Virus record (IMG/VR): IMGVR_UViG_3300049595_003462
Strand: one strand, 5' to 3'
From: an uncultured virus (IMG/VR IMGVR_UViG_3300049595_003462)
Lineage: Duplodnaviria; Heunggongvirae; Uroviricota; Caudoviricetes
DNA length: 64,000 bases
Of this stretch, positions 3,607 through 63,891 are shown piece by piece. Every line of letters begins with the position of its first letter. Position 1 is the first letter of the stretch. The translations under genes and the position numbers were made by a program. The notes beneath the pieces are model-generated. The model made no database searches. It was not told where the DNA came from and was given only the letters and a program-made list of their open reading frames with translations.

Positions 3607-3662
3607 CCGCTTTATTTATTAGTCGTGAATTACTATATTTTGATAAAATATATTAATTTATT

Positions 3663-10852: not shown

Positions 10853-11667
10853 CAAAAACAGTAAAAGATGTTAAAAATTATTGGAATAGTAGACCATGTA
10901 ATATTAGACATTCAAAAAAAGAAATTGGTAGTAAAGAATACTTTAACGACGTAGAACATCGTAAATATTTTGTAGAACCACACATACCAGAATTTGCAGA
11001 ATTTGAAAAGTGGAAAGGAAAAAAAGTTTTAGAAATTGGATGTGGTATAGGTACCGATTCAATAAATTTTGCAAAAGCGGGTGCTAAATTAACATGTGTT
11101 GAGTTATCTGAAAAGTCTTTAGAATTGTGTAAAAAAAGGTTTGAAATTTTTGGTTTAAATGCCGATTTTTATTGTGCAAACGCTGAAGAACTATCCAAAG
11201 TTGTTCCAATTGAAGAATACGATTTAATATATTCTTTTGGAGTTATTCATCATACCCCAACACCACAAAATGTATTTGACGAAATTAAAAAATATATGAA
11301 CGAAAACACTGAAGTTCGTATAATGATGTATGCAAAACACTCATGGAAAACATTTGAGTTTTTCATTAGAAATGGGTATAAATTTAATTTCAACCTTAAT
11401 AAAACAATACAATATTACGCTGAAGCTCAATTAGATTGTCCTGTAGCATTTACATACACTAAAAAAGAATTAATAAACTTGTTGGAATTAGATAATAATT
11501 TTAAAATTACATCTGTTAGAAAAGACCATATTTTTCCCTATGTAATTAAGGATTATATAAAACATAACTATAATAAAAAAACTATAATTAAACTTATACC
11601 AAAATCCATTTTTAGTTATTTAGAATCTATACTTGGTTGGCATTGGTTGATAACATTTAAAAAATAA
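10849..11667 (+). CDS. Class I SAM-dependent methyltransferase
   Basis: [21 protein letters not shown]. Confidence 0.85.
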
Positions 11668-11670
11668 ATT

Positions 11671-12492
11671 ATGATAACATGTAGTAACATAGGTGACAAT
11701 GGAAGATTTGGTAATCAACTATTCCAATTCGCATCTTTAATCGGAATTGGGGATAAATTAAACTATGAAGTTTTATTTCCTAAAAAAAATCTAAAACAAA
11801 TAAACATATCATCAACAAGAGAAAACAAGACTTTTGTCGCATATTTTGAAATAAATGAATGTTTTGATATTGACCAAAAATTTTTCACTGATGATTTAAT
11901 AATTGAGAAAAGAGTTAGTGAAAGATTTTTTCATTTTGATGAAAACTTGTTTAATATTTTAGACAACACGGATGTTAATGGTTATCTACAATCAGAAAAA
12001 TATTTTAAACATTGTTCAGATAAAATAATGGACATTTTAAAATTTAAAGATTCTATTATAACATCAGCAAAATCATACCTACCAAAGACAGATAAGACAT
12101 TAGTGTCAATTCATGTTAGAAGAACTGATGCCGCAGTACCTAATCCGTATCATCCATTAACAGGTTTAGATTTCTTTAATCCCGCAATAGAACATTTTAA
12201 TAAAGATGAGTACCATTTTGTAGTTTGCTCTGACGATTACGAATGGTGCAATAATGTTTGGGGAAATGACGAAAACTTTACTGTTGTTAATTCAAAATCA
12301 CCTTATGTTGATTTATGTGTTATGTCACTATGTGACCACCACATAATCTCAAATAGTTCATTCAGTTGGTGGAGTAGTTACTTATCAAAAAATAAAAATA
12401 AAAAAATCATCGCTCCAATCAAATGGCTCGGTACAGGGTATTCAACATACATTACCGATGATTTATATACAGAAAATATGATAAAATTATAA
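11671..12492 (+). CDS. GT11 alpha-1,2-fucosyltransferase-like protein
   Basis: GRFGNQLFQ, GYLQSEKYF, SIHVRRTD, NSSFSWW. Confidence 0.9.
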   Translation: MITCSNIGDNGRFGNQLFQFASLIGIGDKLNYEVLFPKKNLKQINISSTRENKTFVAYFEINECFDIDQKFFTDDLIIEKRVSERFFHFDENLFNILDNTDVNGYLQSEKYFKHCSDKIMDILKFKDSIITSAKSYLPKTDKTLVSIHVRRTDAAVPNPYHPLTGLDFFNPAIEHFNKDEYHFVVCSDDYEWCNNVWGNDENFTVVNSKSPYVDLCVMSLCDHHIISNSSFSWWSSYLSKNKNKKIIAPIKWLGTGYSTYITDDLYTENMIKL

Positions 12493-12497
12493 ACATA

Positions 12498-13553
12498 ATG
12501 GAAAATCAAATAAATCATCCTGAACATTATGGTGGAGAAGATAATCCATATGAAGCCATTAAAGTGATTGAATCTTGGGATTTAGGATTTCATCTTGGCA
12601 ATGCAATAAAATACATTTCAAGAGCGGGTAAAAAAAGTATTGATACTGAGTTAGAAGATTTAAAAAAATCTTTATGGTATATTGAAAGAAAAATACAAAA
12701 ATTAGAAGATAATGATTTTACTTTACAAGACGAAACTGATGAGTTAGATATTGACGTAAAAGACTTAACAAAAACAACATTTATTATTCCAGTTTGTGTT
12801 GAATCCAAGGACAGATATAATAACGCTGTAAGTGTACTTGGGTTTTTAAATAAAAATTTTAAAACAAATGTTATTATACATGAATTAACTAAAGAAGAAA
12901 GTAAATTAGATTTTATTAGTTCATTAAAAAACTTAAAAATAAATCACATTCTTCAAAAAGATAATTTGGATTACTACCACAGAACAAAACAATTAAACGA
13001 AATGTTAAATATTGTAAAAACACCTGTAGTTGTTAATTATGATATTGACGTTATTTTACCTGTTGACTCTTACGTTGAGTCACAAAATTTAATACTTAAT
13101 GGTAATTCAGATTTTGTTTATCCTTACGGTGATGGTGAATTTCAAAGGGAAATTTCTTTAAGTTTTAACAGGGATGAGTTTAATATAAATTTTGATATAA
13201 ATTCAATTGATACTAATTTACTAAAAACTTTTACGTCAAAATATGGTCATTGTGTTTTTGCAAATACAAAAAAATATAGAAAATGTGGTGGAGAAAATGA
13301 AAATTTTATTGGATATGGACCTGAAGACCAAGAAAGAGAAAATAGGTTTATAACTTTAAAATATAATGTATCAAGAGTAGATAATCTTGTGTATCATTTT
13401 GAACATTCAAGAACACCATTTAGTAACGGGGATAATAAATATTACGACAAAAATCATAAATTGTGTGATAAATTATTGGCTATGGACTATAAATCAATGT
13501 TAGATTATTATAACAATATTGAATATAGAGAGAAATACGATAAATTTAATTAA
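12498..13553 (+). CDS. DUF3310-like N-domain fused to galactosyltransferase-like (GT7-C-like) domain
   Basis: NHPEHY..GNAIKYISRAGKK..EDLKKSLWY, then YDIDV, GGENENFIGYGPED, YHFEH. Confidence 0.75.
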   Translation: MENQINHPEHYGGEDNPYEAIKVIESWDLGFHLGNAIKYISRAGKKSIDTELEDLKKSLWYIERKIQKLEDNDFTLQDETDELDIDVKDLTKTTFIIPVCVESKDRYNNAVSVLGFLNKNFKTNVIIHELTKEESKLDFISSLKNLKINHILQKDNLDYYHRTKQLNEMLNIVKTPVVVNYDIDVILPVDSYVESQNLILNGNSDFVYPYGDGEFQREISLSFNRDEFNINFDINSIDTNLLKTFTSKYGHCVFANTKKYRKCGGENENFIGYGPEDQERENRFITLKYNVSRVDNLVYHFEHSRTPFSNGDNKYYDKNHKLCDKLLAMDYKSMLDYYNNIEYREKYDKFN

Positions 13554-13567
13554 AACATATCAAAATT

Positions 13568-14407
13568 ATGATAGGACTAACTAATACCGAAATATTACAC
13601 CATGAAAAAGGTAGATTTGGAAATCAACTTTTTAGAATTGGTGCGGTAGTTGGAGAATCAATGAAACGTAATGTTGAATATTACATCCCAAAAGAATGGG
13701 ATCACTGCGATTTGTTTCCCAATTTAAAAAATAAAATATCAGTAAATGATATTAAACATAATGTATCATCAACACACCAAGAACCATCATTTGCATATCA
13801 CGACATACCTAGCAATTCAGGTCTTTTGGAAATAAATGGATTTTTCCAATCGTGGAAATATCTTGAGGGATTTGAAAATGAGGTAATTGAAGAATTATCT
13901 TTTTCTAAAGAAAGGATTGATAAAGCATTATCTAAAATGTCCAAAGACACAATAAAATTATGTGTTCATGTTAGGTGGGGAGATGTATATGATAGAAAAA
14001 CTGGTGGTGGTCATAAGGGTTTTGAAAAGTGGCACCCAACAATGTCACTTAACTATTATGAAAATGCAATAAATTTTATTTTAAATGAAACTAAAATTGA
14101 TGAAATTTTAATTTTTACAGATAACGAAGACACCAAAGATTTTATTTTTGGTAAGTTTGAAAAATTTGGAGTTACAGTTGTCTATTTTGATTACGACAGC
14201 GACTATATAACAGATTTCGTATCACAAAGTTTATGTCAACATTTTGTTATTGCAAATAGTACATTTTCTTGGTGGTCATCATTTTTAAGTAAAAATAAAA
14301 ATAAGATAGTTTGTTGTCCTAAAGAAGAAGATTGGTTTGGTTCGGCATACACTCAACACGATAGGAGTGCGTTATTACCAATAACTTGGAAAAGAATTAA
14401 TCAATAA
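13568..14407 (+). CDS. GT11 alpha-1,2-fucosyltransferase-like protein (second copy)
   Basis: GRFGNQLF, GFFQSWKY, VHVRWGD, NSTFSWW. Confidence 0.9.
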   Translation: MIGLTNTEILHHEKGRFGNQLFRIGAVVGESMKRNVEYYIPKEWDHCDLFPNLKNKISVNDIKHNVSSTHQEPSFAYHDIPSNSGLLEINGFFQSWKYLEGFENEVIEELSFSKERIDKALSKMSKDTIKLCVHVRWGDVYDRKTGGGHKGFEKWHPTMSLNYYENAINFILNETKIDEILIFTDNEDTKDFIFGKFEKFGVTVVYFDYDSDYITDFVSQSLCQHFVIANSTFSWWSSFLSKNKNKIVCCPKEEDWFGSAYTQHDRSALLPITWKRINQ

Positions 14408-14412
14408 GAAAT

Positions 14413-15030
14413 ATGGAAAATGTTTTAACCCCACAAGAAATGTGGGAAAGAGATAGAGGAGATGAAATTAAAATTATTGATTATCCGTTAGATTCTAATT
14501 CCCAAGTAATTGAACTTGGTGGATTTACTGGAGTATGGTCTAAAAAAATTATTGATAAGTTTAATCCAAACTTAATTATTGTGGAACCAGTCCCTAATTT
14601 TGTTTATGAGTTAACACGTAATTTTGGTGAAAATCCAAAAGTTAACATTGAAGGAGTTGCAATATCAACATCAAATAAAAAAATAAACTTGTATGTTAAT
14701 GGGTGTGCAACTTCAGAAACAATTGAAGTTTCAAAAAGAAAAATTAGTGTTGATTCGTACGACATTGGTTATTTTATATCCAAATATAATTTAAATAAAA
14801 TTGACTTAATTCAAATTAACATTGAATGTGAAGAATATCCATTACTTTTAAATTGGATTGAGACAGGATTTTTAAAAAATGTAAAATACCTACAAATACA
14901 ATTTCATACCTTTTGTGAAAATTATGAAGAAAACTATGAAAAAATATTTGAGGGATTAAAAGGAAATGGATTTGAAATCAATTATAAATATGACTTTGTT
15001 TGGGAGTCTTGGGTAAACAAAAATATATGA
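14413..15030 (+). CDS. FkbM-family methyltransferase
   Basis: VIELGGFTG, VEPV, IDLIQINIECEEY, LQIQFH. Confidence 0.8.
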   Translation: MENVLTPQEMWERDRGDEIKIIDYPLDSNSQVIELGGFTGVWSKKIIDKFNPNLIIVEPVPNFVYELTRNFGENPKVNIEGVAISTSNKKINLYVNGCATSETIEVSKRKISVDSYDIGYFISKYNLNKIDLIQINIECEEYPLLLNWIETGFLKNVKYLQIQFHTFCENYEENYEKIFEGLKGNGFEINYKYDFVWESWVNKNI

Positions 15031-16787
15031 ATTTAGATAAAAATATAATAGATGTTATTGAGAATTGGAATTTGTCATACACTGTTGGTAATTCATTGTT
15101 TCACATTTTAAATTCAAAAAATAAAGATTTTAATGATTTGGAAGAATTAAAAAAAGCTTCTTGGTTTTTAAATAAAAAAATAGATTCTTTAGAAAATTTA
15201 CCCCCAAGTAAGACTAAATTTAATAAAATTAAATTAGATGATATAGATTTTAAATGTATTAATCTAAAAAAAAGAAATGATAGAAGGGATTGGATTAACT
15301 CTCATTTACCAAAGTTTAATATAAACTATGAATTTTTTGACGCAATTGTTGATGATAATGAATATGATGTTAATTTTCCAAAGGCTTACAGTAAAGGTCA
15401 AAAGGGTTGTTTTCTTTCACACTATAAATTACTTAAAACACATGACAGTAATAAAATTTTAGGTATATTTGAAGATGATGTTGAATTATGTGAAGATTTT
15501 TTGGACAGGTTTAAGTATATTGAAGACAACTTTAATTTAGATTGGGATATATTCTTTTTATCATCGTACTACCATTTGAATGAACATAAAGATAGATGGA
15601 ACCCTTCAGGTGATTTTGAATTAACTGATACAAAATATATCCACAGAGTTTATGGCGCATTTACAACACATGCTTATTTGGTTAACCCAAAATCAATTGA
15701 TAAAATTTTAAAATTGATTGATGAAAACATTGCCGACACTTATGCAATTGACCATGTGTATTGCTCCAAAATTGAAAGTAAGTTAAATTGTTATTCTTTT
15801 ACTCCAGGAATGGCAAACCAAAGGGTTAGTCATAGCGATATTGATGGTAGTAATAAAGACCCTAACGAATTTAAATTAATTGTTGGTGAACACTATTACG
15901 TGAATAACCTTAAAGATTTTGATTATGAAAAATATTTTGAAAAATATATTTCAGAAAGAGATTCTAAAAAAATTAAATCTAAAATTTTTGATAAAACAAA
16001 AATTAAACAAGATGATTTTGACTACGACAAATATTTTGAAAAAATAAATAATAAGATATCAACAAGTATAAACAGATATGAATTTAAAAATAGTTATAAT
16101 CTAAATTACGTAATATATAACTACGATTATTTTACAAATCTTTATTACCAAAAAACTAATGTTGTAAATGAGGAATATAAAGAATATAGTAAATTACAAG
16201 AGTTAATAAGTTTGGTAGATAAATCAAAAATTATTATTGATATTGGTGCAAATTGTGGTTTATTTAGTATTCCATCCTCACTAAACGGATATGAAGTATA
16301 CGGTTTTGAACCTGTACGAATGAATATAAAATTGTTAGAATTAGGAAGAGAAGAAAACAAATGTAATAATTTTAATATTGTAAATATGGGAGTTTCTAAT
16401 AAAACAAAAAAAGAAACAATCTACATACCATATTGTTCAGACAACACATCTTTTAATAAAGATGTTGCAATAAGTAATATGTCATTTAGTAAAAATTATA
16501 TTGAAGAAACAGTTAATTGCACCACGTTTGATGATTGGATTAAAAAAAATAAAAATCTTAATATTGGATTTATTAAAATTGACGTTCAAGGATTTGAAAA
16601 AGAAGTGTTGGAGGGCATGACAGGATTTCTTAAAAATTGTAACGATGTTTACATTTATCTTGAATGGGATAAAAACTTAACAGAAAATAATGGGAATTCT
16701 TTAGGTGACATGGAAACTATTCTTATTGAGAATAATTTTGAAGTGAGAGAAACTTTAGAAAACGATAAACTTTTTTATAAAAAATAA
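15027..16787 (+). CDS. Fusion: degenerate DUF3310-like + GT25 glycosyltransferase + FkbM methyltransferase
   Basis: Start reassigned to the ATG at 15027 (ATGA overlap). INLKKRNDRR, GCFLSH, FEDD, THAY (GT25); IDIGANCG, FEP, IKIDVQGFE (FkbM). Confidence 0.85.
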   Translation: MNLDKNIIDVIENWNLSYTVGNSLFHILNSKNKDFNDLEELKKASWFLNKKIDSLENLPPSKTKFNKIKLDDIDFKCINLKKRNDRRDWINSHLPKFNINYEFFDAIVDDNEYDVNFPKAYSKGQKGCFLSHYKLLKTHDSNKILGIFEDDVELCEDFLDRFKYIEDNFNLDWDIFFLSSYYHLNEHKDRWNPSGDFELTDTKYIHRVYGAFTTHAYLVNPKSIDKILKLIDENIADTYAIDHVYCSKIESKLNCYSFTPGMANQRVSHSDIDGSNKDPNEFKLIVGEHYYVNNLKDFDYEKYFEKYISERDSKKIKSKIFDKTKIKQDDFDYDKYFEKINNKISTSINRYEFKNSYNLNYVIYNYDYFTNLYYQKTNVVNEEYKEYSKLQELISLVDKSKIIIDIGANCGLFSIPSSLNGYEVYGFEPVRMNIKLLELGREENKCNNFNIVNMGVSNKTKKETIYIPYCSDNTSFNKDVAISNMSFSKNYIEETVNCTTFDDWIKKNKNLNIGFIKIDVQGFEKEVLEGMTGFLKNCNDVYIYLEWDKNLTENNGNSLGDMETILIENNFEVRETLENDKLFYKK

Positions 16788-16788
16788 A

Positions 16789-17373
16789 ATGATAACAGAA
16801 ACAGGATATTGGACATCAGATGACACAGAAGCAATCCATGTGCATGACCCAAGCTTAGCAAATTGGATTTTAAATTACCTACAGGATGATAAGGATAAAC
16901 AATTAATTGATTTTGGATGTGGTTTTGGGGATTATCTTAAAAATTTACATAACAATGGATTCACAAACTTACACGGATTTGAAGGTGAGGTTAGAAAGGG
17001 AAGTCTAAAATTTATTAAAAATTGGGATTTGTCAAACCCAATAAAAAACTATAAAAATTATGACAATTTAAAAAATAACGCATACAACACAATTTGTTTA
17101 GAAGTTGGTGAACATATACCAAAGCAATATGAATCAATTTTTTTAGATAACATTACATCACTCACTACAAATAAAATAATATTGTCTTGGGCCATCATTG
17201 GTCAATTAGGTGATGGTCATGTTAATTGTATGAATAATGATGAAGTTATTTTAAAAATGAATGATTTAGGTTTTGACTACTTGGAAAATGATAGTATGAG
17301 TGCACGTAATTCAGTTTCACCTGCAATTGCATCTTGGTTTCTAAAAACCATAATGATTTTTAAAAAAAAATAA
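16789..17373 (+). CDS. SAM-dependent methyltransferase
   Basis: IDFGCGFG, CLEVGEHI, GQLGDGHVN. Confidence 0.8.
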   Translation: MITETGYWTSDDTEAIHVHDPSLANWILNYLQDDKDKQLIDFGCGFGDYLKNLHNNGFTNLHGFEGEVRKGSLKFIKNWDLSNPIKNYKNYDNLKNNAYNTICLEVGEHIPKQYESIFLDNITSLTTNKIILSWAIIGQLGDGHVNCMNNDEVILKMNDLGFDYLENDSMSARNSVSPAIASWFLKTIMIFKKK

Positions 17374-17375
17374 CT

Positions 17376-17756
17376 ATGATTACAATACCTGTTAGTGTTG
17401 GAGAATTAATTGACAAATTATCAATCCTTCACGTTAAAAAAATAAAAATAACTAACCTTGAAAAATTGGTGTACGTTAATAAAGAATTTGAATTATTATA
17501 TAACTTCTCTTCAGATTATTTAAACGATGAAGAAATAACAAAATTATACCACGAGTTAGTTGATACTAATTCAAAACTATGGGAGATTGAAGATATGTTA
17601 AGAATTATTGAAACTGAAAAAATTTTTAATTCAAAGTTTATTGAACTTTCAAGAAATGTATATCACACAAATGATAAAAGATTCAAATTAAAAAATGAAA
17701 TAAACGAAAGAACTTCTTCTGAAATTAGAGAAGTTAAAGAATACGTAGAATATTAA
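17376..17756 (+). CDS. Conserved hypothetical protein (DUF6165-like)
   Basis: PVSVGELIDKLSIL..LWEIED..VYHTNDKR..EVKEY. Confidence 0.7.
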   Translation: MITIPVSVGELIDKLSILHVKKIKITNLEKLVYVNKEFELLYNFSSDYLNDEEITKLYHELVDTNSKLWEIEDMLRIIETEKIFNSKFIELSRNVYHTNDKRFKLKNEINERTSSEIREVKEYVEY

Positions 17757-17758
17757 TT

Positions 17759-18823
17759 ATGAAAAAAATATTAATTCTTGGTGGCGGCGGATTTATAGGT
17801 GGTCACTTGGCAAAAAAATTAAAAGATGAAGGTAACTACGTAAGAGTAGTCGACATAAAAAGTCACGAATATTTTACACCTGAAGAAATGTGTAATGAAT
17901 TTTTAACTTACGATTTACGTGACCCAAAAAATGTGGAAGCAGTTATTAGAGTAGAAACTTACGAAAATAAAATTATACCATTTTCATATCTCAAACAACC
18001 TTATTCCGAAGTAACTTCGTTTGACGAAGTTTATCAACTTGCAGCAGATATGGGTGGTGCAGGATATATTTTTACAGGAGAACACGATGCGGATGTTATG
18101 CATAACTCGGCGATGATTAACTTAAATGTTGCTAAAGAATGTGTCGAACAAGGAGTTAAAAAAGTATTTTACTCGTCATCGGCATGTATGTATCCTGAAC
18201 ATAATCAGTTAGACCCTAACAATCCAAATTGTGAAGAATATTCTGCTTATCCCGCAAACCCAGATTCCGAATATGGATGGGAAAAATTATTTTCGGAAAG
18301 ATTATTTTTATCATTTCATAGAAACTATGGATTAAATGTTAGAATTGCAAGATTTCATAACATTTTTGGACCAATGGGAACTTGGAAGGGTGGTAAAGAA
18401 AAATCGCCAGCAGCGATGTGTAGAAAAGCTGCCGAAACACCTGATGGTGGTGAGATTGAAGTTTGGGGTAGTGGTGTGCAAACACGTTCATTCTTATACG
18501 TTGATGAGTGCGTTGAAGCGGTGTTAAGATTAATGGATTCAGAATTATCAAAACCAGTTAATATTGGTAGTGAAGAAATGGTGACAATCAATCAACTTGC
18601 AAGTATGGCAATTGCTATTTCAGGTAAAGACATAAAAATTAAAAATATAGAAGGAGAAGAATTTTTTAATAAATACGGATTTAAATGCCCTTTAGGCGTT
18701 AAAGGAAGAAATTCAGATAATAGATTATATAAAAGTGCAATTGGTTGGGAAGTAAATCAACCCTTGTCCATCGGTCTTAAAAAAACATATGAATGGATTA
18801 AATCTCAAGTTGATAACTTATAA
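17759..18823 (+). CDS. NAD-dependent epimerase, GDP-mannose 3,5-epimerase-like
   Basis: GGGGFIG, LAADMGG, SSSACMYPE, YGWEK, GGKEKSPAAMCRK. Confidence 0.85.
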   Translation: MKKILILGGGGFIGGHLAKKLKDEGNYVRVVDIKSHEYFTPEEMCNEFLTYDLRDPKNVEAVIRVETYENKIIPFSYLKQPYSEVTSFDEVYQLAADMGGAGYIFTGEHDADVMHNSAMINLNVAKECVEQGVKKVFYSSSACMYPEHNQLDPNNPNCEEYSAYPANPDSEYGWEKLFSERLFLSFHRNYGLNVRIARFHNIFGPMGTWKGGKEKSPAAMCRKAAETPDGGEIEVWGSGVQTRSFLYVDECVEAVLRLMDSELSKPVNIGSEEMVTINQLASMAIAISGKDIKIKNIEGEEFFNKYGFKCPLGVKGRNSDNRLYKSAIGWEVNQPLSIGLKKTYEWIKSQVDNL

Positions 18824-18838
18824 AAAAAACAAATTTAA

Positions 18839-19588
18839 ATGGCAAATACAAGACAAAAAAAATCACCAGTACCCACTCCTTCAATGGAAGAAGGTCACAA
18901 TAAAACAAGAAAAGAAGTAATCTGTTCAATATTAAAAAAGAAAACCAAAGAAAAATTTCTAACTCAAACACAAAAAAGATACTACGATACATTAACCTCA
19001 AGTGAAGTTACGGTATGTTCAGGTCCAGCAGGGGTAGGTAAAAGTTATATTACTATGAAAGCAGCAATTGATTTACTTGCTGATCCAAACACACCTTATG
19101 AAAAGATTATTATAGTAAGACCTGCAGTTGAGGCTGAAGAAAAATTAGGTAGTTTACCTGGTAATGTTGAAGAAAAATTAGACCCTTATATTTTCCCGTC
19201 TTATTATTTGTTAAATAAAATTGTAGGAAAAGAAATTAGAGAAAAATTAAAAGAACTTGAAATTGTTGAGGTGTTTGCATTGGCGTTTATGAGAGGTATG
19301 AATATTGATAACTCAATTTTAATTTTTGAAGAGGGTCAAAACGCAACACCAAGTCAAATGAAATTACTATTGACAAGAATTGGGTTTAATAGTAAATTCT
19401 TTATATCTGGCGATGTTGAGCAATCAGATAGATACAAAAATAAAACTCACAGTGGATTATGGGATGCAATTGAAAAATTTAGAGACGACAAATATATTTC
19501 AACATTTGAATTTAAAGATAAAAACGATATTGTTAGAAATCCTTTAATTAGTAAAATATTACAAAAATACGATAACGAAACAGAATGA
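18839..19588 (+). CDS. phoH: PhoH-family ATPase
   Basis: GPAGVGKS, RPAVE, LGSLPG, FMRG, EGQN, LTRIG, GDVEQSD, VRNPLI. Confidence 0.9.
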   Translation: MANTRQKKSPVPTPSMEEGHNKTRKEVICSILKKKTKEKFLTQTQKRYYDTLTSSEVTVCSGPAGVGKSYITMKAAIDLLADPNTPYEKIIIVRPAVEAEEKLGSLPGNVEEKLDPYIFPSYYLLNKIVGKEIREKLKELEIVEVFALAFMRGMNIDNSILIFEEGQNATPSQMKLLLTRIGFNSKFFISGDVEQSDRYKNKTHSGLWDAIEKFRDDKYISTFEFKDKNDIVRNPLISKILQKYDNETE

Positions 19589-20181
19589 GAATTGCAATAG
19601 AGTTAAATGGTGTTTTACGAGATACTTTAAAAAAAATACAACAGGAATACGAAAAATGGTATTTGGATAATCCATTCAAAGAAGACGAGGAAAAATCTGA
19701 ATATGAGGTAATTTCTGACTTGAGTAGTTTAGATATTGGTAAACACTTGAAATTTAAAGATGAAGATGAACTGTATAATTTTTTATACAAAGAACATACC
19801 ATGGAAATCTTCGGTCATGCGGGTTCAGTTGAGGTATCAAGTATGATGGATTTCAACGACTTTTATTTAGATATGAGAGATAATCATGATATTTTAATCG
19901 TTTCCGATGAAATTGGTAAATCAAAACCAGCGTCTCTATTCTTCATTTCAAAATTTGGTTGTCTTGTTGAAATGGTTAAATTTTATAGTGAACCAACAAT
20001 TAATTCAATGTGGAATTCAATAGACGTTTTACTTACAGCAAATCCTAACTTATTATTAAATCATCCTGAAGGAAAAATTGTTATAAAATATGAAACATTA
20101 TATAACAAGGATGTTGAAACAGAACATTCGATAACAAAAATAAAAGAATTACAAACAAAAATAAAAGAGCTATATGATTAA
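19585..20181 (+). CDS. HAD-like (5'-nucleotidase-like) protein with a degenerate motif I
   Basis: RIAIELNGVLRD resembles the IxIDxDGVLxD motif. Confidence 0.5.
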   Translation: MRIAIELNGVLRDTLKKIQQEYEKWYLDNPFKEDEEKSEYEVISDLSSLDIGKHLKFKDEDELYNFLYKEHTMEIFGHAGSVEVSSMMDFNDFYLDMRDNHDILIVSDEIGKSKPASLFFISKFGCLVEMVKFYSEPTINSMWNSIDVLLTANPNLLLNHPEGKIVIKYETLYNKDVETEHSITKIKELQTKIKELYD

Positions 20182-20455
20182 AGTATTAGGAGAAAACTAC
20201 TATATTGATTTAGACAAAATTGAAGAATATTTGGACATGTCTAACCAATATACTGAAGGTGAAACTTCAGGTAACACAGAAACAAGGATTAACATCATAA
20301 AATTTGAAATGGTAAAAATGTTGGTGGACACCATTTTAACTGAGCATGAAGAAATTGATGAGCAGTTAGGAATGAAATCAAGTTCAAATACAAGTATACC
20401 TTTCAGGTTAGCTTTTAATAGCTTATTAAATAAAAAACTTATAAATCATTATTAA
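20174..20455 (+). CDS. Hypothetical protein
   Basis: 93 aa operonic ORF. Confidence 0.6.
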   Translation: MIKVLGENYYIDLDKIEEYLDMSNQYTEGETSGNTETRINIIKFEMVKMLVDTILTEHEEIDEQLGMKSSSNTSIPFRLAFNSLLNKKLINHY

Positions 20456-20456
20456 T

Positions 20457-21509
20457 ATGGATACATCGTTAAACGAAAAAGTAAAACAGTCGATTCAAAA
20501 CCTAAAAGATAGAAAATCAAGAATTTATTTTCTTATTCAAGATACTAAAGGTAATGCAAAAGCTTCTGTTAGATTAATTTATCAAATGGCAAAATCGCTA
20601 TTAGATGCGGGATTTAATCCTATAATTCTTCACGAGAAAAAAGAATATGCTGGTGTTGTTGCGTGGCTTGATGAAGAATACATGTCAATTCCTCACAGAG
20701 CAATTGAAGGTCAAAATTTAGAAATTGCGCCTGAAGATTTTATTGTTGTTCCTGAATTGTTTGGGTACGTGATGGACCAAATTAAAAATTTACCTTGTGG
20801 TAAAATAGTTTTTACCCAAAACTATAATCACATTGTGGAAACATTACAACCTGGTCAAAATTGGGCTCAATATGGTTTCTTTAAATGTTTAACAACAACA
20901 ACAAAACAACAGGAGTATATTGAAACGGTTATGAGACAATCAAGTTTTGATATTATTAAACCTTTAATTACAGATAGTTTTTACCCGAAAAATGTCCCAC
21001 CAATGCCAATCATTGGAGTTCACACTAAAAATCAAGAAGATACTATTAACATTATCAAGACTTTTTATTTAAAATTTCCACAATATAGATGGTTTACATT
21101 TAGAGACTTAAGAGGACTTTCTGAAAAAGAATTTGCGAACTCATTAAGAGATTGTTTTGTTAGTGTTTGGATTGATGACGAGAGTGGTTTTGGTACCTTC
21201 CCATTAGAATCTATGGCATCAGGAGTACCTGTTATTGGTAAAACTCCAAATATTCAACCTGAATGGATGAATGATGATAATGGTGTTTGGTTAACAAACA
21301 AAACAATGATTTGTGATTTTATTGCTGACTATATTCAAAATTGGTTAGAAGATAACATCAAGACTGATCTTTATGAAAACATGAAGAAAACGGTTGAAAA
21401 CTATACTAATAAACAAGAATTTGACTCTACGGTAATTTCGTTATTTGAAAACTACCTAAACGTAAGATCAGAGTCGTTTGAACAACAAATATCTAAAACA
21501 GAAGAATAA
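20457..21509 (+). CDS. Glycosyltransferase (GT-B-like)
   Basis: VVPE, SGFGTFPLESMASGVPVIG. Confidence 0.75.
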   Translation: MDTSLNEKVKQSIQNLKDRKSRIYFLIQDTKGNAKASVRLIYQMAKSLLDAGFNPIILHEKKEYAGVVAWLDEEYMSIPHRAIEGQNLEIAPEDFIVVPELFGYVMDQIKNLPCGKIVFTQNYNHIVETLQPGQNWAQYGFFKCLTTTTKQQEYIETVMRQSSFDIIKPLITDSFYPKNVPPMPIIGVHTKNQEDTINIIKTFYLKFPQYRWFTFRDLRGLSEKEFANSLRDCFVSVWIDDESGFGTFPLESMASGVPVIGKTPNIQPEWMNDDNGVWLTNKTMICDFIADYIQNWLEDNIKTDLYENMKKTVENYTNKQEFDSTVISLFENYLNVRSESFEQQISKTEE

Positions 21510-21510
21510 T

Positions 21511-22317
21511 ATGAACGAAAAATTATCACTATCAATCATACTACCTATCAAATCATCAAAATCTAGAGATTTTAATGACTATTTTGAAAAGGCAATAACC
21601 TCAATTAAATCACAAACTGTTGATATTGAAGAGTTAATAATTGTACACACATCTGAAGAATCATTAGTTAACCATTTAAATGGTTATGATTTTGGAGATA
21701 TAAATGTTACAAAATTATTATGGGATAAAGAACCTAGTTATGCAGAACAAGTTAATTTTGGGGTTAAAAACGCAAAAGGTATTTGGGTTTCATTATTTGA
21801 ATTTGATGATGAATACTCGTCAATATGGTTTAAAAATGTTAAAAAATACATTGGTTCATATCCTGAAACTCAAGTATTTTTACCTGTGGTTGTTGAAACG
21901 GACGAAAAAGGTTTATTTGCCGGTTTTACCAATGAAGCAACCTTTGCGGCAAACTTTAGTCAAGAAATGGGATTTTTAACTAATGAAACTTTACAAGACT
22001 ATCAAAATTTCCAAACAGCAGGCGCTGTTATTAAAAAACAAGTTATTGAAGACTTTGGAGGTTTTAAACCCTCAATCAAGTTAACGTTTGTTTATGAGTT
22101 TTTATTAAGATTAACCTACAATTCTGTATCAATTATGACAATACCTAGACTTGGGTATAAACACACCAACATGAGAGAAGGTTCAATTTTTTGGAATTAT
22201 AAGTTTGGTGAAAACAAAATGTTAGAAGACGAAGTTAAATTTTGGGTTCAAACTGCAAAAAAAGAATTTTTCTTTGTTGACGATAGGGTCATAAAATATC
22301 AATCAGAAAATGGATAA
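21511..22317 (+). CDS. Glycosyltransferase (GT2-like)
   Basis: LSIILP, VNFGV, FEFDDEY, FGGFK; start at ATG 21511. Confidence 0.7.
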   Translation: MNEKLSLSIILPIKSSKSRDFNDYFEKAITSIKSQTVDIEELIIVHTSEESLVNHLNGYDFGDINVTKLLWDKEPSYAEQVNFGVKNAKGIWVSLFEFDDEYSSIWFKNVKKYIGSYPETQVFLPVVVETDEKGLFAGFTNEATFAANFSQEMGFLTNETLQDYQNFQTAGAVIKKQVIEDFGGFKPSIKLTFVYEFLLRLTYNSVSIMTIPRLGYKHTNMREGSIFWNYKFGENKMLEDEVKFWVQTAKKEFFFVDDRVIKYQSENG

Positions 22318-46273: not shown

Positions 46274-46999
46274 TTATTCTTGAATTGTTCTTTCAACAGA
46301 CAACTCTTTATCTGTCTCTTTATTCACGGTATCAAATAATTTTTCTATGTGACCTGACCTTCTTAAAAACTTAAAGACTAAATTTTCATAAGATAATTCA
46401 CCATCTTTTTCTAACCCAGCCTTTCTATAATCTTTGAGTTTAGTCTTAATTGTTTCTAAATCTTTGCCCTCGTCAATTGCAGTATCAATCTTTTCTGTCC
46501 AAGTTTTTATCTTTTTTTCAAGCACACCTTTATCAATTTCATTCTTGAATTTTTTTGGTTTACTAATCCATTCATCATTCATAACAGAATAAACTCCCGA
46601 ACTATAATGTGGTTCTTCTGCATCTTGAGCATATAACTCAACATCATAACCAAAAATCTTAATATTATGTTTGTCGTTGAAAACTTGTTTTTTTAAATTA
46701 AACAATTCTTTATACAATTCACTTTGGTTTTCGTATTGTTGTAAATCAACAATTACATGTAAATCAAAATCTGAAAATTCTGACCAATTAAAATTTGCCA
46801 ATGAACCTGTGAGATGAATATCGTCCACAAAAACATCATCACCCAAATAATCAATAAACTCTTCCGCAATACGCGTAAGAGCTTTTCTAACTTTTGGTAT
46901 CATAACCGCTTTGTTAGGTTCTTTTGGGGATTCCCAAATTTTTGGGTTTAATGTGTCCTTAATAGAAAAACTATCAAGGATTTTTTGAAAACTATTCAT
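46274..46999 (-). CDS. Nucleotidyltransferase (Pol-beta superfamily)
   Basis: LTGSLAN..SDFDLH and VELY motifs. Confidence 0.8.
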   Translation of the reverse strand: MNSFQKILDSFSIKDTLNPKIWESPKEPNKAVMIPKVRKALTRIAEEFIDYLGDDVFVDDIHLTGSLANFNWSEFSDFDLHVIVDLQQYENQSELYKELFNLKKQVFNDKHNIKIFGYDVELYAQDAEEPHYSSGVYSVMNDEWISKPKKFKNEIDKGVLEKKIKTWTEKIDTAIDEGKDLETIKTKLKDYRKAGLEKDGELSYENLVFKFLRRSGHIEKLFDTVNKETDKELSVERTIQE

Positions 47000-53137: not shown

Positions 53138-53525
53138 GGGGTAGAAAGGCAATTGATTTCATATGTCTGTAATCGGTGGCACGTAGTGAGATGTTTCCTA
53201 TCACTTAAATCTATGGTAATAACAATTATACGGCAACGTGTTAAACAAAATGGCTCTATTAGGTCTTGTAAAACAAGATGAGCTTGTAGAAGTAGCGTAA
53301 GCAAAACTATATTCAGGTCGGGGAGATATTAACCTTGGAACATAAATCTCTATAGGGTGTGGTTTCTATCCTAAAAGAAACAAGTGGAGGATTAGTTCTC
53401 AGTAAACCGAACCACTTTAAAAATAAGGGAATTGTGAATTTTGGAATGTTAGCAAACATTATCCTAAACGTGTAGTCATTTATTATTGAGTAGGGAAGAC
53501 CGCGGTTCGAATCCGCGCTACTCCA
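53138..53525 (+). ncRNA. ssrA: tmRNA
   Basis: GGGGTAG/CTACTCC-A acceptor with G3-U; T-arm CGCGG-TTCGAAT-CCGCG; tag ORF 53232-53300 GNVLNKMALLGLVKQDELVEVA*. Confidence 0.9.
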
Positions 53526-53535
53526 CATTTAACAT

Positions 53536-59312: not shown

Positions 59313-59372
59313 TTGTATTATTAGTGTTCCAAAATTAATAAAAAAATAGAGTTTTGGAACACTAATAATTTT

Positions 59373-59690: not shown

Positions 59691-59775
59691 ACTTTAATTT
59701 CTTAAATTCAAATATAAAAAAATCCCCCTGAATTTCAAACTCAGAGGGATAAATTATTTCTAATAAAAAATTATC

Positions 59776-60278: not shown

Positions 60279-60350
60279 TTGCGATAAAAGGAATTGAACC
60301 TTTGACATCTTGGATATGAATCAAGTGCTCTACCACTGAGCTATATCGCA
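60279..60350 (-). tRNA. tRNA with CAT anticodon (Met; Ile2 not excluded)
   Basis: TGCGATA/TATCGCA acceptor, CTTGA-TTCATAT-CCAAG. Confidence 0.8.
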
Positions 60351-60355
60351 ATTTG

Positions 60356-60430
60356 TAGTCTTATAAGGACTCGAACCTTAACGTCTTTTTGTCCGTAGCA
60401 AAATGTTTTATCCAATTAAACTATAAGACC
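60356..60430 (-). tRNA. tRNA-Arg(ACG)
   Basis: TTTTG-CTACGGA-CAAAA. Confidence 0.88.
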
Positions 60431-60434
60431 ATTG

Positions 60435-60507
60435 TTGTCCCGACAGGTCTCGAACCTATACTCTTCTGGACCAAAACCAGACGTGTTGCCAATTACACCA
60501 CAGGACA
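60435..60507 (-). tRNA. tRNA-Gln(TTG)
   Basis: TCTGG-TTTTGGT-CCAGA. Confidence 0.9.
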
Positions 60508-60514
60508 ATTTTTG

Positions 60515-60596
60515 TGGGAGCGATAGGACTCGAACCTATGAACTCTAAAGAGGGCGGAGTTACAGTCCGCAGCAATTGCCGCTATGCGACGCTCCC
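60515..60596 (-). tRNA. tRNA-Tyr(GTA)
   Basis: GCGGA-CTGTAAC-TCCGC. Confidence 0.92.
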
Positions 60597-60600
60597 AAAT

Positions 60601-60735
60601 AAGGAAAACAGAAGATGGTCGAGTGGACATCTGTTTTTACGATTAGCATTACTTAGGTGAATACCTCCCAACTCCGATTGTACTAGTCAGTATTCACTCT
60701 CGAACTATCAGTACAATCATTCCCTAATCAACCTT
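60601..60735 (-). ncRNA. Candidate pseudoknotted ncRNA between tRNA-Trp and tRNA-Tyr
   Basis: 9-bp, 8-bp, 8-bp and 6-bp perfect helices, one crossing. Confidence 0.65.
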
Positions 60736-60737
60736 TG

Positions 60738-60818
60738 CACGCCAGGAAGGATTCGAACCCCCGTTAAATTAACTTACAGTTTTGGAGACTGTTGCCTAAG
60801 CCGCTCGGCCACTGACGT
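60738..60818 (-). tRNA. tRNA-Trp(CCA) with extended variable region
   Basis: ACAGT-CTCCAAA-ACTGT; A1-U72, G73; 13-nt variable region. Confidence 0.85.
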
Positions 60819-60830
60819 GTATTTTTTTTG

Positions 60831-60901
60831 AGGTCGGTACAGGATTTGAACCTGTGTAAGCGGTTTTGCAGACCGATGCCTAACCACTCGGCCAACCGAC
60901 C
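60831..60901 (-). tRNA. tRNA-Cys(GCA)
   Basis: CGGT-CTGCAAA-ACCG, U73. Confidence 0.9.
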
Positions 60902-61006
60902 TTAATATTTTATCAATTCACCGATTACCACAATTACGGTGAGACCATCGGGTACTCGGACCCGTGTTTTCTTTTTACCCGTGGATTAAACTATTTGATA
61001 GGGTAG

Positions 61007-61081
61007 TGTCCCCGATGGGGCTCGAACCCATGACCCCTAAATTAAAAGTTTAGTGCTCTAAACCAACTGAGCTACGAAGAC
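61007..61081 (-). tRNA. tRNA-Lys(TTT)
   Basis: CTAAA-CTTTTAA-TTTAG. Confidence 0.9.
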
Positions 61082-61087
61082 ATTGTG

Positions 61088-61159
61088 TTGTCACGATAGG
61101 ATTTGAACCTATGACCGCTTCCGTATCAGGGAAGAACTCTACCGCTGAGTTACGTGACA
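61088..61159 (-). tRNA. tRNA-Ile(GAT)
   Basis: CTTCC-CTGATAC-GGAAG. Confidence 0.9.
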
Positions 61160-61161
61160 AT

Positions 61162-61692
61162 AAAAAAAGGTTCTAAATCATCCCCACGCCATTTTGAGAG
61201 AACCTTTTAAGTTTTAGATTTGGCGATATAGTATCCCACACCGATATGTCTAAGATTTGTTAGACAATAGTAACCATCCACGGTGGGTCTGTACTTTCAC
61301 ACTCCGTCCATGTTTACTTATCTAATCGGTTTGTCATAGAGTTTTCAACATAGCGTTCAGTGCTATCCTCAGAACATCTTCACCCTACCCCCAAAGTTAC
61401 GTGGTGAGTCTCACTCGGAAGAAGAGTGTGTACCGTAAGATTGTTCAGTATTCTTACGACTTGTGGATTCTATTACGACTAATTAAAGCCCCTTACCCCC
61501 TTAATCCATAATGGGGAACTCTTCTAATTTGAGATTCCAATGTACCTGACGGAATTTCACCCAATCAATTAATCTCGTTCATGAAAGATTATACAAGTTT
61601 CACTCTGTGTTACCTCCCCCATAGCCTTGAAGCCTTCAAGTCAGGGTCACACACCATAACGAACAAGTACTTTTCGTTAATCGTGGGGTCTT
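61162..61692 (-). ncRNA. Large ornate structured ncRNA candidate (~530 nt; GOLLD/ROOL-like size and context, or new)
   Basis: No credible ORF, visibly GC-richer than its flanks, more than 10 complementary helices including long-range and crossing pairs. Confidence 0.65.
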
Positions 61693-61758
61693 AAGTAAAG
61701 TATGACGTTTGATCGTCCTATGGTTGTTTCCATCCGCGGACTCACGGTTCTCTTTACT

Positions 61759-61848
61759 TGGCGGAGAGGGAGGGATTCGAACCCCCGTTAGAGTCTCCCC
61801 TAAAACGGTTTTCAAGACCGCCGCGTTCGACCGCTCTGCCACCTCTCC
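61759..61848 (-). tRNA. tRNA-Ser(TGA)
   Basis: GCGGT-CTTGAAA-ACCGT, long variable arm, encoded CCA. Confidence 0.95.
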
Positions 61849-61872
61849 ATTTAATAGGTACAAACCTAATAA

Positions 61873-62268
61873 TTATTTTATTAAAATCCAAGCTTCTTTA
61901 CAATATTTTTCATGTTTTCTTGCTTCGATTTCCATTGGATGCTTTTCATATCCATGTGTTTTTAACATTTTATAATACCTACTTACAATTGGTTGTAATG
62001 TGTGGGCATATTCATGTAATGTTGTTTCAATTACATCTTTAACATTCTTACAATTGTTTTTAAAGATATAAATAGTATTAGTATCAGGATTATACTCACC
62101 AAAATTTTGAATTTCGGCGTTTTTACTTTGATTCTTAACTACAACAGTACAACATCCTTTTCTTTTGTTAATTCCAAATTTAAATACACTATATCTTATT
62201 GTTTTATCAACAATTCTTCTAATTTCTCTGTGATTTAAATTATTTAAATTTGTATTTAGTCTGATCAT
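61873..62268 (-). CDS. HExxH zincin-like metallopeptidase
   Basis: GEY..I..TTLHEYAHTLQ..HPMEIEAR; TATATTTG at 62288-62295. Confidence 0.7.
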   Translation of the reverse strand: MIRLNTNLNNLNHREIRRIVDKTIRYSVFKFGINKRKGCCTVVVKNQSKNAEIQNFGEYNPDTNTIYIFKNNCKNVKDVIETTLHEYAHTLQPIVSRYYKMLKTHGYEKHPMEIEARKHEKYCKEAWILIK

Positions 62269-62328
62269 ATGTTTATTGTTTGGAATACAAATATACATAA
62301 AAATACCATATTAACAAAAAAATATTTT

Positions 62329-62420
62329 TAGGTCGTGACGAACCCATCTGTCACTTCTTACTAGATACTTGTGGCTTGATTATCATGATTAACGCCGCTA
62401 CCACTAGGGATCCCAACCTA
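62329..62420 (-). ncRNA. Candidate structured RNA downstream of tRNA-His
   Basis: TAGGTTG/CGACCTA closure, GTGAC/GTCAC hairpin, possible GGATCC/GGGTTC pseudoknot. Confidence 0.5.
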
Positions 62421-62424
62421 TTTG

Positions 62425-62500
62425 GGTGACTAACGGGAGTCGAACCCGTGACCTCTTGAACCACAATCAAGCACTCTAAACCAACTGAGCTATAGCCAAC
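62425..62500 (-). tRNA. tRNA-His(GTG)
   Basis: G-1:C73, CTTGA-TTGTGGT-TCAAG. Confidence 0.9.
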
Positions 62501-62501
62501 A

Positions 62502-62662
62502 TGTAAAAGGTAGTGGTTGACTTTATCAAGAATCCCGCCTAGCGACCATAAGTTTGGGCCCAGCTTCACACACCATTAGAGAGTTGGGTATTACTACCTA
62601 TCCTTAGTGTGTACCCTTGCGTCACGTCTCTCCACGCTTATCAACCTACGCATTTTACTACC
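62502..62662 (-). ncRNA. Candidate structured RNA (~160 nt)
   Basis: Long closing stem, CACACTA/TGGTGTG, GGTA-GTAA-TACC, crossing GGAGAG/CTCTCT. Confidence 0.5.
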
Positions 62663-62666
62663 AATT

Positions 62667-62774
62667 GCCGATTAAAAAGGATTCGAACCTTAATCTTACT
62701 CCCCTGGTTACCGTACCTAATCTGAAGACTCGAACTTCAGCGGGGGGTGTTGTGCGCCATTACACCATAATCAA
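62667..62774 (-). ncRNA. tRNA-like RNA without a canonical anticodon loop, with an extra T-loop hairpin
   Basis: TTGATTA/TAATCGG acceptor, D-arm, T-arm AAGG-TTCGAAT-CCTT, internal CTGAAG-TTCGAGT-CTTCAG. Confidence 0.6.
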
Positions 62775-62823
62775 TCGAGTGTTTCGAATCACTCAGTCTC
62801 AGATTAATTACTCCTGAGATTTG

Positions 62824-62937
62824 TAATCAGGACAGGATTCGAACCTGTATTAGTTGTACACCTAACTGAATCAATTTCCTCCGAGTACATCCGAACCCTA
62901 CTTTATCATCATGCATCTACCATTCTGCCACCTGACT
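62824..62937 (-). ncRNA. tRNA-like RNA family copy 1 (114 nt)
   Basis: AGTCAGG/CCTGATT-A acceptor, Leu-like D-arm, ACAGG-TTCGAAT-CCTGT, expanded anticodon arm. Confidence 0.7.
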
Positions 62938-63118
62938 ATTTCTTAAATGCTAATTTTATCTTTTCCCATATACTCATACTCTTATAATCATAGTAAAAGT
63001 TTATTGCTCTTGGAATACCACTCGACCAATGATGACATTCTGTTGATAATTTTTCGTAATGTTCTAAATCTGATTCACGTAAATCTTCATTAGTTGCTTG
63101 ATAACATTTATTTTCCAT
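62936..63118 (-). CDS. Small hypothetical protein
   Basis: 60 aa; TAG stop overlaps the 5' end of tRNA-like copy 1. Confidence 0.5.
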   Translation of the reverse strand: MENKCYQATNEDLRESDLEHYEKLSTECHHWSSGIPRAINFYYDYKSMSIWEKIKLAFKK

Positions 63119-63191
63119 AATTTTATTTTTATTTAAAGTTTATCGTTCTAAATCCCGCCCTTCTGGTAGCTGCAAAACGGTAGAAGTAATA

Positions 63192-63440
63192 TCATTTATA
63201 TCTTTTAAATCTATTATCACTTAAATCATCCACACCTTCACCAATTTTAATCCTATCTAATTTAGTTCTCTGTTCAAGTTCTAATATTTTATTTTTCAAT
63301 TCGTCTATAACCTTATTATATCCTTTTGTTCCTATTTCACCTTTAGATAAGTGTTTAGTTTTAGCTAAAATTGTTTCCAACTCTGTTCTTAACTTATCTA
63401 TTTCTTTTTGTCTATTAATGATACTACTTGAACTTTTCAT
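63192..63440 (-). CDS. Small hypothetical protein
   Basis: 82 aa, coiled-coil-like, between tRNA-like copies. Confidence 0.55.
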   Translation of the reverse strand: MKSSSSIINRQKEIDKLRTELETILAKTKHLSKGEIGTKGYNKVIDELKNKILELEQRTKLDRIKIGEGVDDLSDNRFKRYK

Positions 63441-63529
63441 CTTCGTAAGTTATTTTTTTGTTTTTAAATTAAATTATTATTTAGATACTTTATAAACTTC
63501 CCTACTGGGATTTGAACTCAACACTTTTG

Positions 63530-63671
63530 TAGTCAGGACAGGATTCGAACCTGTAACTCCTATTGCGTCTACTCATATCACTTTAGGATAGACTAATATG
63601 ACCCTGCGGAGTAGAATCGTCTATCTTTCGATACCTATATTAGCGAGTCTAACCAATTCCGCCACCTGACT
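63530..63671 (-). ncRNA. tRNA-like RNA family copy 2 (142 nt)
   Basis: Same acceptor/T-arm; CTAATAT/ATATTAG arm with insert; TCCTA/TAGGA variable arm. Confidence 0.7.
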
Positions 63672-63676
63672 AAATT

Positions 63677-63800
63677 TGCTCGTCTATTCCGAGCTGTCAA
63701 CGATCCTTGAAGCTTACCTACGCACTGTGAGGTAGACCGTGTGTTCGTTCGCATTGCCTAATCATTGAGCGCTTTTACATTTCGGCTGCCGTGCGTGTCA
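63677..63800 (-). ncRNA. Candidate pseudoknotted RNA between tRNA-like copies 3 and 2
   Basis: ACGCAC/GTGCGT crossing TACCT/AGGTA; terminal GCTCG/CGAGC. Confidence 0.45.
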
Positions 63801-63801
63801 G

Positions 63802-63891
63802 TAGTCAGGACAGGATTCGAACCTGTAAATTTCCAATCGCAACGATACCATATCCTATCTTGGAGTCGAACCAACTTTAAACCACCTGACT
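63802..63891 (-). ncRNA. tRNA-like RNA family copy 3 (90 nt)
   Basis: Same acceptor/T-arm; interior has a second T-loop hairpin TTGG-TTCGACT-CCAA. Confidence 0.7.

Follow-up and report, generated by a model that had tools for sequence, protein, structure and literature searches.

The tRNA array on the minus strand between positions 60279 and 63891 of a 64,000-nucleotide (nt) stretch of uncultured virus DNA (IMG/VR record IMGVR_UViG_3300049595_003462; "the window" is this whole stretch) is probably a modular RNA operon, in which more than one promoter gives rise to tRNAs together with accessory RNAs that would be released in two modes and would act in trans as RNA bodies. An earlier note on this DNA had proposed that the tRNAs punctuate one transcript, from which RNase P and 3' trimming release a library of phage noncoding RNAs. 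The library has held up as a set of conserved, covarying, and exchangeable modules.

Layout of the array

The range holds 10 tRNAs, three tRNA shells with variable middles, one further tRNA-like unit, and seven non-tRNA elements of 66 to 525 nt. Gaps in which one tRNA directly follows another measure 4, 5, 6, 7, or 12 nt. Eight gaps are longer. The earlier note had such gaps filled by folded elements, and this was borne out for the six that are noncoding (49 to 602 nt, G+C 0.38 to 0.49, compared with 0.306 over positions 1-53000); the remaining two (592 and 576 nt) consist mostly of AT-rich open reading frames (ORFs) of 82, 60, and 141 amino acids (aa). All eight coordinates marked in the note proved to belong to real units, each with homologues. 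Seven are non-tRNA elements; the eighth, 62667, marks a tRNA-like RNA with a conserved pair of hairpins in front of it and not the non-tRNA element it had been taken for. The 525-nt RNA does not follow a tRNA in the window but begins 2 nt after the 66-nt module. The units are as follows.

63802-63891 (-): tRNA shell A, a shell-family member with constant acceptor stem, D-arm start, and T arm, a variable middle, and no normal anticodon arm; Rfam tRNA match of only 31 bits
63678-63800 (-): pseudoknotted RNA of ~123 nt with a 3' hairpin; homologues and covariation
63768-63773 (-): self-complementary hexamer loop, candidate kissing-loop dimer site; palindromes at the aligned center
63530-63671 (-): tRNA shell B, 142 nt, shell-family member
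63192-63440 (-): 82-aa ORF within the array, without a Pfam family
62936-63118 (-): 60-aa ORF ending in a stop codon that overlaps the beginning of shell C
62824-62937 (-): tRNA shell C, 114 nt, shell-family member
62776-62819 (-): two conserved hairpins, invariably before the tRNA-like unit at 62667-62774
62667-62774 (-): tRNA-like unit of a second shell type, with a His-like acceptor stem and an anticodon region of variable length
62509-62662 (-): 154-nt RNA with a closing stem and two pseudoknots; homologues and covariation
62425-62499 (-): tRNA-His
62329-62420 (-): RNA of 92 nt; closing stem, probable pseudoknot, palindromic loop (62383-62388)
62288-62318 (-): Bacteroidota-type promoter match inside the array, one of four full minus-strand matches in the window
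61873-62298 (-): 141-aa ORF, likely start 62268, with an HExxH motif; weak matches to DUF3920 and phrog_16532
61759-61848 (-): tRNA-Ser(TGA), the sole unit in the range with an encoded CCA
61693-61758 (-): multi-stem RNA of 66 nt whose closing stem covaries; the 525-nt RNA often follows it directly
61167-61691 (-): ornate RNA of 525 nt; optional domains and four or more covarying pseudoknot helices
61007-61159 (-): tRNA-Ile and tRNA-Lys
60911-61005 (-): RNA of ~95 nt with a closing stem, two hairpins, and a probable pseudoknot
60738-60901 (-): tRNA-Cys and tRNA-Trp
60602-60734 (-): 133-nt multi-pseudoknot RNA; homologues and covariation
60279-60596 (-): tRNA-Tyr, -Gln, -Arg, and -Met, with linkers of 4 to 7 nt
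59722-59750 (-): terminator-like hairpin after a DUF5856 gene, the probable 3' end of the unit

The tRNA-like unit at 62667-62774 received neither an ARAGORN nor an Rfam call. In the hairpin pair that precedes it (10 distinct members), stem pairs covary above a tree-based null.

Seven conserved RNA families and their covariation

When viral and metagenome contigs were scanned with motifs, all seven non-tRNA elements proved to have homologues in other phage contigs. Of the checks that the earlier note had suggested, folding against dinucleotide shuffles of the minus strand singled out one element (61690-61758, z of -3.5); the others lay between -0.6 and +0.3, and real tRNAs behaved alike (tRNA-His at +0.4, tRNA-Trp at -0.15). 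Since genuine tRNAs fail the single-sequence folding test too, we rejected the z-score as uninformative and turned to the comparison of homologues. This comparison, based on covariation and judged against shuffles, slid controls, and a purpose-made tree-based null, did find compensatory change. It is strong in four families (62509-62662, 63678-63800, 60602-60734, and the 525-nt RNA), standing far above shuffled and slid controls in the first three, and support is thinner in the other three, with 16, 10, and 3 distinct members.

The 154-nt family (62509-62662) was found in 65 viral stretches with 49 distinct members. Among 28 sequences, 92.3% of the cells are paired and 22 of 44 pairs show compensatory change; none of 500 shuffles scored as high, slid controls reached 36 to 52%, and ten pairing positions have an E value of 0.05 or less under the tree-based null. 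For the 63678-63800 family (83 viral stretches, 57 distinct members), the corresponding values in 28 sequences are 93.7% paired cells and 13 of 27 compensatory pairs, with three pairs above the tree null. The 133-nt module (60602-60734) is present at 29 of 80 loci and has 26 distinct full members, seven partial or 5'-divergent ones having been removed from 33 before counting; in 18 sequences 88.6% of the cells are paired, 13 of 35 pairs are compensatory, and one pair exceeds the tree null. Tandem paralogues of this module lie between tRNA-Trp and tRNA-Tyr in L012, L015, L016, L020, and L022-L024.

The best pair of the 61693-61758 family (16 distinct members) has an E value of 0.05. Compensatory pairs, none of them above the tree null, occur among the 10 distinct members of the 62329-62420 family, from whose 12 matches one (L388) was removed as unrelated or doubtful. 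With the initial search pattern, the 60911-61005 family gave only identical copies, and six of its eight matches were due to chance. The family was reached through a weak match in G006, between tRNA-Ser and tRNA-Gln, and has only 3 distinct members (the window, L492, and L499; L500 was removed as unrelated or doubtful), whose stems, by eye, vary in sequence yet pair.

None of the seven families had an Rfam match, and the region and 16 family loci gave nothing else that approached a threshold; in the window and seven arrays, gathering scores were reached by tRNA and transfer-messenger RNA (tmRNA) only. Searches of GenBank phages with the region returned tRNA matches alone and nothing for the 525-nt RNA. 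The module set had been expected to be invisible to ORF annotation; in fact, Rfam-based annotation misses the whole of it as well.

A large ornate RNA of 525 nt

The 61167-61691 family comprises 59 distinct full-length members of 386 to 531 nt, whose start is fixed and whose end is marked by a hairpin. A tree-null analysis of 13 sequences was underpowered and ranked non-pairing columns equally; it was rerun with 59. Of the nine top-ranked column pairs in the 59 sequences, seven are fully Watson-Crick or GU, and cross terms of these make up the remaining two. Other helices are crossed by four that covary (positions 24-27/171-174, 246-249/317-320, 434-438/513-517, and 467-470/502-505). A tRNA or shell end lies within 15 nt of the RNA in 30 of the 59 members by a geometric test and in 39 by an ARAGORN-based test, so that this is a large multi-pseudoknot RNA near phage tRNAs. 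It adjoins the 66-nt module in 18 of 59 members, and a promoter-like site precedes it in 7.

Modules exchanged at tRNA junctions

The window end has identical counterparts in two IMG/VR contigs, L001 and L002, in which the array continues ~6 kb further upstream. In L001, L003, L004, and L005, the gap between tRNA-Ser and tRNA-Ile is 599, 369, 4, and 71 nt with the tRNA order unchanged, and that between tRNA-Lys and tRNA-Cys is 104, 5, 5, and 5 nt. The full set of eight units is confined to this phage among the 15 arrays compared; the collected stretch of each of the others has 0 to 2. Module borders are sharp, and the flanks are unrelated across homologues. Together, these comparisons show that modules have been gained, lost, and moved as whole units at the tRNA junctions of related phages.

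The 154-nt family, gathered by a motif search blind to tRNAs, lends itself to a count of neighbors. A tRNA-like end lies no more than 15 nt upstream in 34 of 49 members, mostly 1 to 5 nt past the discriminator, and a tRNA start lies close downstream in 35 of 49, mostly at 4 to 8 nt. By the geometric test, 29 of 49 members have a tRNA-like end on both sides and 7 on neither, while the flanking tRNAs change, with 13 different upstream neighbors. Punctuation by tRNAs, as envisaged in the earlier note, thus describes most of this family, but it is not obligatory, and the 63678-63800 and 525-nt families often do without an adjacent tRNA.

Further conserved closed-stem spacer families lie upstream in the arrays (L001 1295-1395, 1939-2234, and 2309-2383; L003 3907-4119; L012 829-969), and these have no Rfam match.

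tRNA shells and a framed RNA core

The shells share acceptor stem, D-arm start, and T arm around unrelated middles. The shell scan gave at least 135 stretches, and all collected loci together hold 258 distinct shells of 61 to 271 nt, whose 220 inserts of at least 30 nt form 166 clusters, 133 of them singletons. In L001, 13 shells lie within ~5 kb (2384-7417) among small ORFs, promoter-like sites, and GC-rich spacers, and two of these have an identical middle. Shells have a 7-base-pair (bp) acceptor stem, a T arm, a D-loop GG (232 of 258), and discriminator A73 (235 of 248), a constancy of the ends that the search pattern partly imposes; a D-arm pattern was found in 131 of 248. They lack a canonical anticodon arm with a consistent anticodon. 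Because ARAGORN calls only 52 of 248, spread over 36 labels (and none of the three in the window), a shell is not a decoding tRNA.

One module family also occurs inside such frames. The 63678-63800 core, which lies free between shells A and B in the window, is enclosed by a complete tRNA frame in 16 of 57 members, where it starts directly after the D arm and ends directly before the T arm. The frames have four acceptor-stem types, all of which pair, and their acceptor and T stems vary in sequence and still pair. In these 16 members an independently folding RNA replaces the anticodon arm of an intact tRNA frame, and framed and free cores are nearly identical in places. By its architecture, the framed core would be a natural tRNA scaffold. 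In another insert cluster, a single copy (L088) appears to be free.

Palindromic loops

The loop of the 63678-63800 family could be parsed in 52 of 57 members, and 24 of 34 distinct loop regions contain a palindrome of at least 6 nt, compared with a mean of 10 and a maximum of 19 in 2,000 shuffles. Eight different palindromic hexamers occupy one aligned center in 32 of the 57 members. A palindromic loop is also present in 8 of 10 members of the 92-nt family, where five different hexamers occur. No conserved palindromic loop was found in the 154-, 133-, and 525-nt families. Self-complementarity is kept while the sequence changes, and a 6-nt palindrome cannot fold on itself; the pattern therefore points to pairing between two copies. 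We infer that the loops of the two families are candidate kissing-loop dimer sites, with the kissing-loop dimers of retroviral RNA as an analogy. Such variable palindromic loops offer a cheap and sharp test of the dimer idea.

Transcription and a proposed release mechanism

The promoter match at 62318-62288, to a motif of the Bacteroidota type, precedes the 141-aa ORF, and several further matches lie upstream in L001. A sigma-70 promoter scan stayed at chance level (19 versus 16.1). With this internal promoter match and three ORFs inside the range, the single transcript of the earlier note is unlikely. Upstream of tRNA blocks in L001 (1480-1783), L027 (6204-6436), and L029 (3903-4181), a promoter, a short leader ORF, and a terminator-like hairpin follow one another in an attenuator-like arrangement.

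All 256 parsed tRNAs of the 15 arrays encode C74; 3 encode CC and 21 encode CCA. Such a 3' end, strictly C-only, could be the sign of a particular maturation route. RNase Z is suppressed by cytidines that follow the discriminator (PMC7479834), and RNase P alone can separate polycistronic tRNAs (PMC2190699). Release by RNase P and 3' trimming as originally formulated would fail at one end, because trimming is exonucleolytic and could not free the 5' end of a downstream module; an endonuclease would be needed there.

We propose that the array is transcribed from more than one promoter and that its modules would leave the transcript in either of two modes. In a spacer mode, RNase P cleavage at the next tRNA or shell would set the 3' end of the module, and its 5' end would come from an endonuclease that cuts the short C-A-A linker behind the preceding tRNA. 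The enzyme of the linker cut would most likely be of the RNase E type, since the C74 cytidines suppress RNase Z, and CCA repair would follow; closing stems and pseudoknots would then shield the released module. The 66- and 525-nt modules lie in a single gap and would come out fused to each other if no further cut followed. In a cargo mode, a module inside a tRNA shell would take the place of the anticodon and variable arms, and tRNA maturation would yield a protected chimera. This architecture is shown for one family, and its processing is inferred. Once released, the RNAs would most likely function in trans as stable bodies, two or more of them in the form of kissing-loop dimers or multimers. 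Binding or decoying host translation proteins or anti-phage RNases seems the likeliest role for them, although this is a guess that is more probably wrong than right. Somewhat more doubtful is a broader picture of an RNA expression platform, in which tRNA punctuation and hypervariable shells mature and protect exchangeable RNA-only effectors, some of them self-assembling; modules would be free or framed, and the ~160 unrelated shell inserts would be additional cargo subject to diversifying selection, for example, decoys for host anticodon nucleases.

Weighing the operon against other explanations

Several observations weigh against a tRNA-punctuated operon of this kind. Tight packing is normal in phage genomes and alone is no proof of processing. 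An adjacent tRNA is not obligatory: a tRNA end within ~15 nt is missing from 21 of 40 free copies of the 63678-63800 family by the geometric test (28 of 46 by the ARAGORN-based one) and from 29 of 59 copies of the 525-nt RNA (20 of 59). C74 in all tRNAs, combined with RNase Z suppression, speaks against RNase Z as the enzyme of the 5' cut. One RNA run (X1; contigs only, share 0.05) gave contigs ~85 to 95% alike that cover the 525-nt RNA and the 133-nt module, one that joins tRNA-Trp to tRNA-Tyr without a module, and several with shells of other middles; such contigs are blind to ends, strand, and level, may derive from DNA, and are not counted as evidence of expression. Alignment columns that served as search patterns cannot vary, by construction, and are silent on pairing. 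As for cargo, the folding of shell inserts barely exceeds that of shuffles (mean z of -0.61, versus -0.27 for control windows), and bootstrap trees of framed and free cores need 3 to 5 state changes, although their well-supported branches allow a single capture. The comparison of frames shows a cargo role for one family and hints at one more (the L088 copy).

The modules might instead act in cis on a long transcript and aid the release of tRNAs and small-gene messages without being products themselves, whether by signaling processing, by blocking exonucleases, or by cleaving themselves as ribozymes. Free 63678-63800 copies and the 525-nt RNA often sit between ORFs or other elements without a tRNA, as this would predict, and the C74 rule speaks against simple RNase Z release; theta ribozymes, moreover, sit 3' of phage tRNAs (PMC10879173). 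Yet no module matches an Rfam ribozyme, and our own descriptor of the hepatitis delta virus (HDV) type had no minus-strand match. Relatives join neighboring tRNAs by 4 to 5 nt without a module, and tRNA release therefore needs none, while the 525-nt RNA and the palindromic loops exceed what a spacer requires. We consider an exclusively cis role unlikely. Quite improbable, in our judgment, is that shells and modules are selfish or recombinational units whose constant ends serve as DNA crossover points for shuffling small genes and cassettes, the tRNA shape making insertion harmless. The crowding of the 13 shells amid small ORFs in ~5 kb of L001, with near-identical ends and unrelated middles, fits this idea, as does the placement of 141-aa ORF homologues directly before a shell in L366 and L166 and before tRNA-Ser in the window. 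Compensatory change at the RNA level, loop-loop pairs included, argues against it, and no reverse transcriptase or recombinase family was found in the 48 window ORFs scanned, the genome being incomplete. Shuffling of this sort can nevertheless coexist with the operon.

That tRNA decay, terminators, or neutral GC-richer filler account for the spacers is extremely improbable. Although folding z-scores are near zero in six of the seven elements, and the shells and the 62667 unit are tRNA-derived, the covariation counts, together with sharp borders and dozens of homologues, largely refute this reading, and no terminator-like match on the minus strand covers the larger modules. A modular operon with trans-acting products remains our preferred explanation.

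Phage, host, and genomic setting

The window derives from a T4-like phage, with a Gp23 capsid and T4 portal and terminase families. Its G+C content is ~0.31 (0.306 over positions 1-53000). The host is probably a member of the Bacteroidota, judging from matches to the Bacteroidota-type promoter motif and from one homologous contig labeled as an uncultured Bacteroidetes bin. Loci were collected through the adjacent DUF5856 gene, and 35 of 80 carry tRNA arrays.

Elsewhere in the window, a phage tmRNA at 53138-53528 (+) scores 54.8 bits in Rfam, was missed by ARAGORN, and is also present in five of six relatives scanned. A perfect 18-bp inverted repeat (59317-59369, z of about -7) lies just upstream of a lone tRNA-Ser(GCT). 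The gene at 46274-46999 (-) has a weak nucleotidyltransferase domain (E value of 2e-4; phrog_36119); it need not be a CCA-adding enzyme, but it is of note beside tRNAs that encode only C74. A long block at 3663-22317 (+) contains glycosyltransferase, methyltransferase, UDP-glucose dehydrogenase, NAD synthase, and PhoH genes.

Comparison with known systems

That passenger RNAs travel in phage tRNA clusters is a known principle. The T4 record lists two stable RNAs (rnaC and rnaD; species 1 and 2) among the tRNAs, directly behind tRNA-Arg; the array resembles this cluster in having small stable RNAs among tRNAs and differs in that T4 has only two, without homology. The T5 record (GenBank AY543070) lists eight, RNAI, III, IV, 1, 2, 2H, 3, and X, with their function annotated as unknown. 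Like the window, the T5 region places non-tRNA and tRNA-like RNAs among tRNAs and small ORFs and has several internal promoters, its RNAs reaching 719 nt; unlike the window, the T5 record has no repeated shell family. Discrete noncoding, non-tRNA units between tRNA genes, the hallmark of T4- and T5-type clusters, are thus present here. No homology was found between the T4 and T5 RNAs and our families (best nhmmer E value of 0.11, save for T-arm matches of the tRNA-like unit).

GOLLD (RF02032) and ROOL (RF03087) are large ornate phage RNAs, often near tRNA islands and possibly cotranscribed with them (PMC5737381), that assemble into RNA-only multimers (10.1101/2024.12.08.627333). The 525-nt RNA is like them in size, setting, and pseudoknot content and unlike them in having no Rfam match and no conserved palindrome that we could find; the GOLLD and ROOL covariance models did not match, with E values up to 5 considered in the window and up to 0.5 in five family members. 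The locus offers seven defined families with testable folds in 3.6 kb, including a candidate of the GOLLD/ROOL kind.

Theta ribozymes (PMC10879173) are, like the modules, structured RNAs at the 3' end of phage tRNAs; the modules differ in that no HDV-like fold was found, a 3' end is also needed, and most are larger. An HDV/theta reading of the modules (nested double pseudoknot, P1.1, and catalytic C in J4/2) was tried and rejected, our own descriptor giving no match and Rfam none.

Neither the families nor the free-or-framed cargo nor the palindromic loops seem to have been described before. In our literature search, outside which most subscription papers lay, no account turned up of these families or of phages with a natural tRNA scaffold. 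A term search of the accessible text of a review of noncanonical tRNAs (PMC7609411) found no mention of phages, and six motifs, in DNA and RNA letters, were absent from the readable tables of Fremin 2023 (PMC10690425), with whose 10,006 candidates an overlap is possible. The closest parallel to the framed core is an engineered one. In the tRNA scaffold of PMC3753655, acceptor stem, T arm, and D arm are kept and a foreign RNA replaces the anticodon stem-loop for stable expression. The framed core has the same layout but is natural, replaces the variable arm too, and has no single closing stem around the cargo. If it is truly a natural tRNA scaffold, evolution would have reached a design known from biotechnology.

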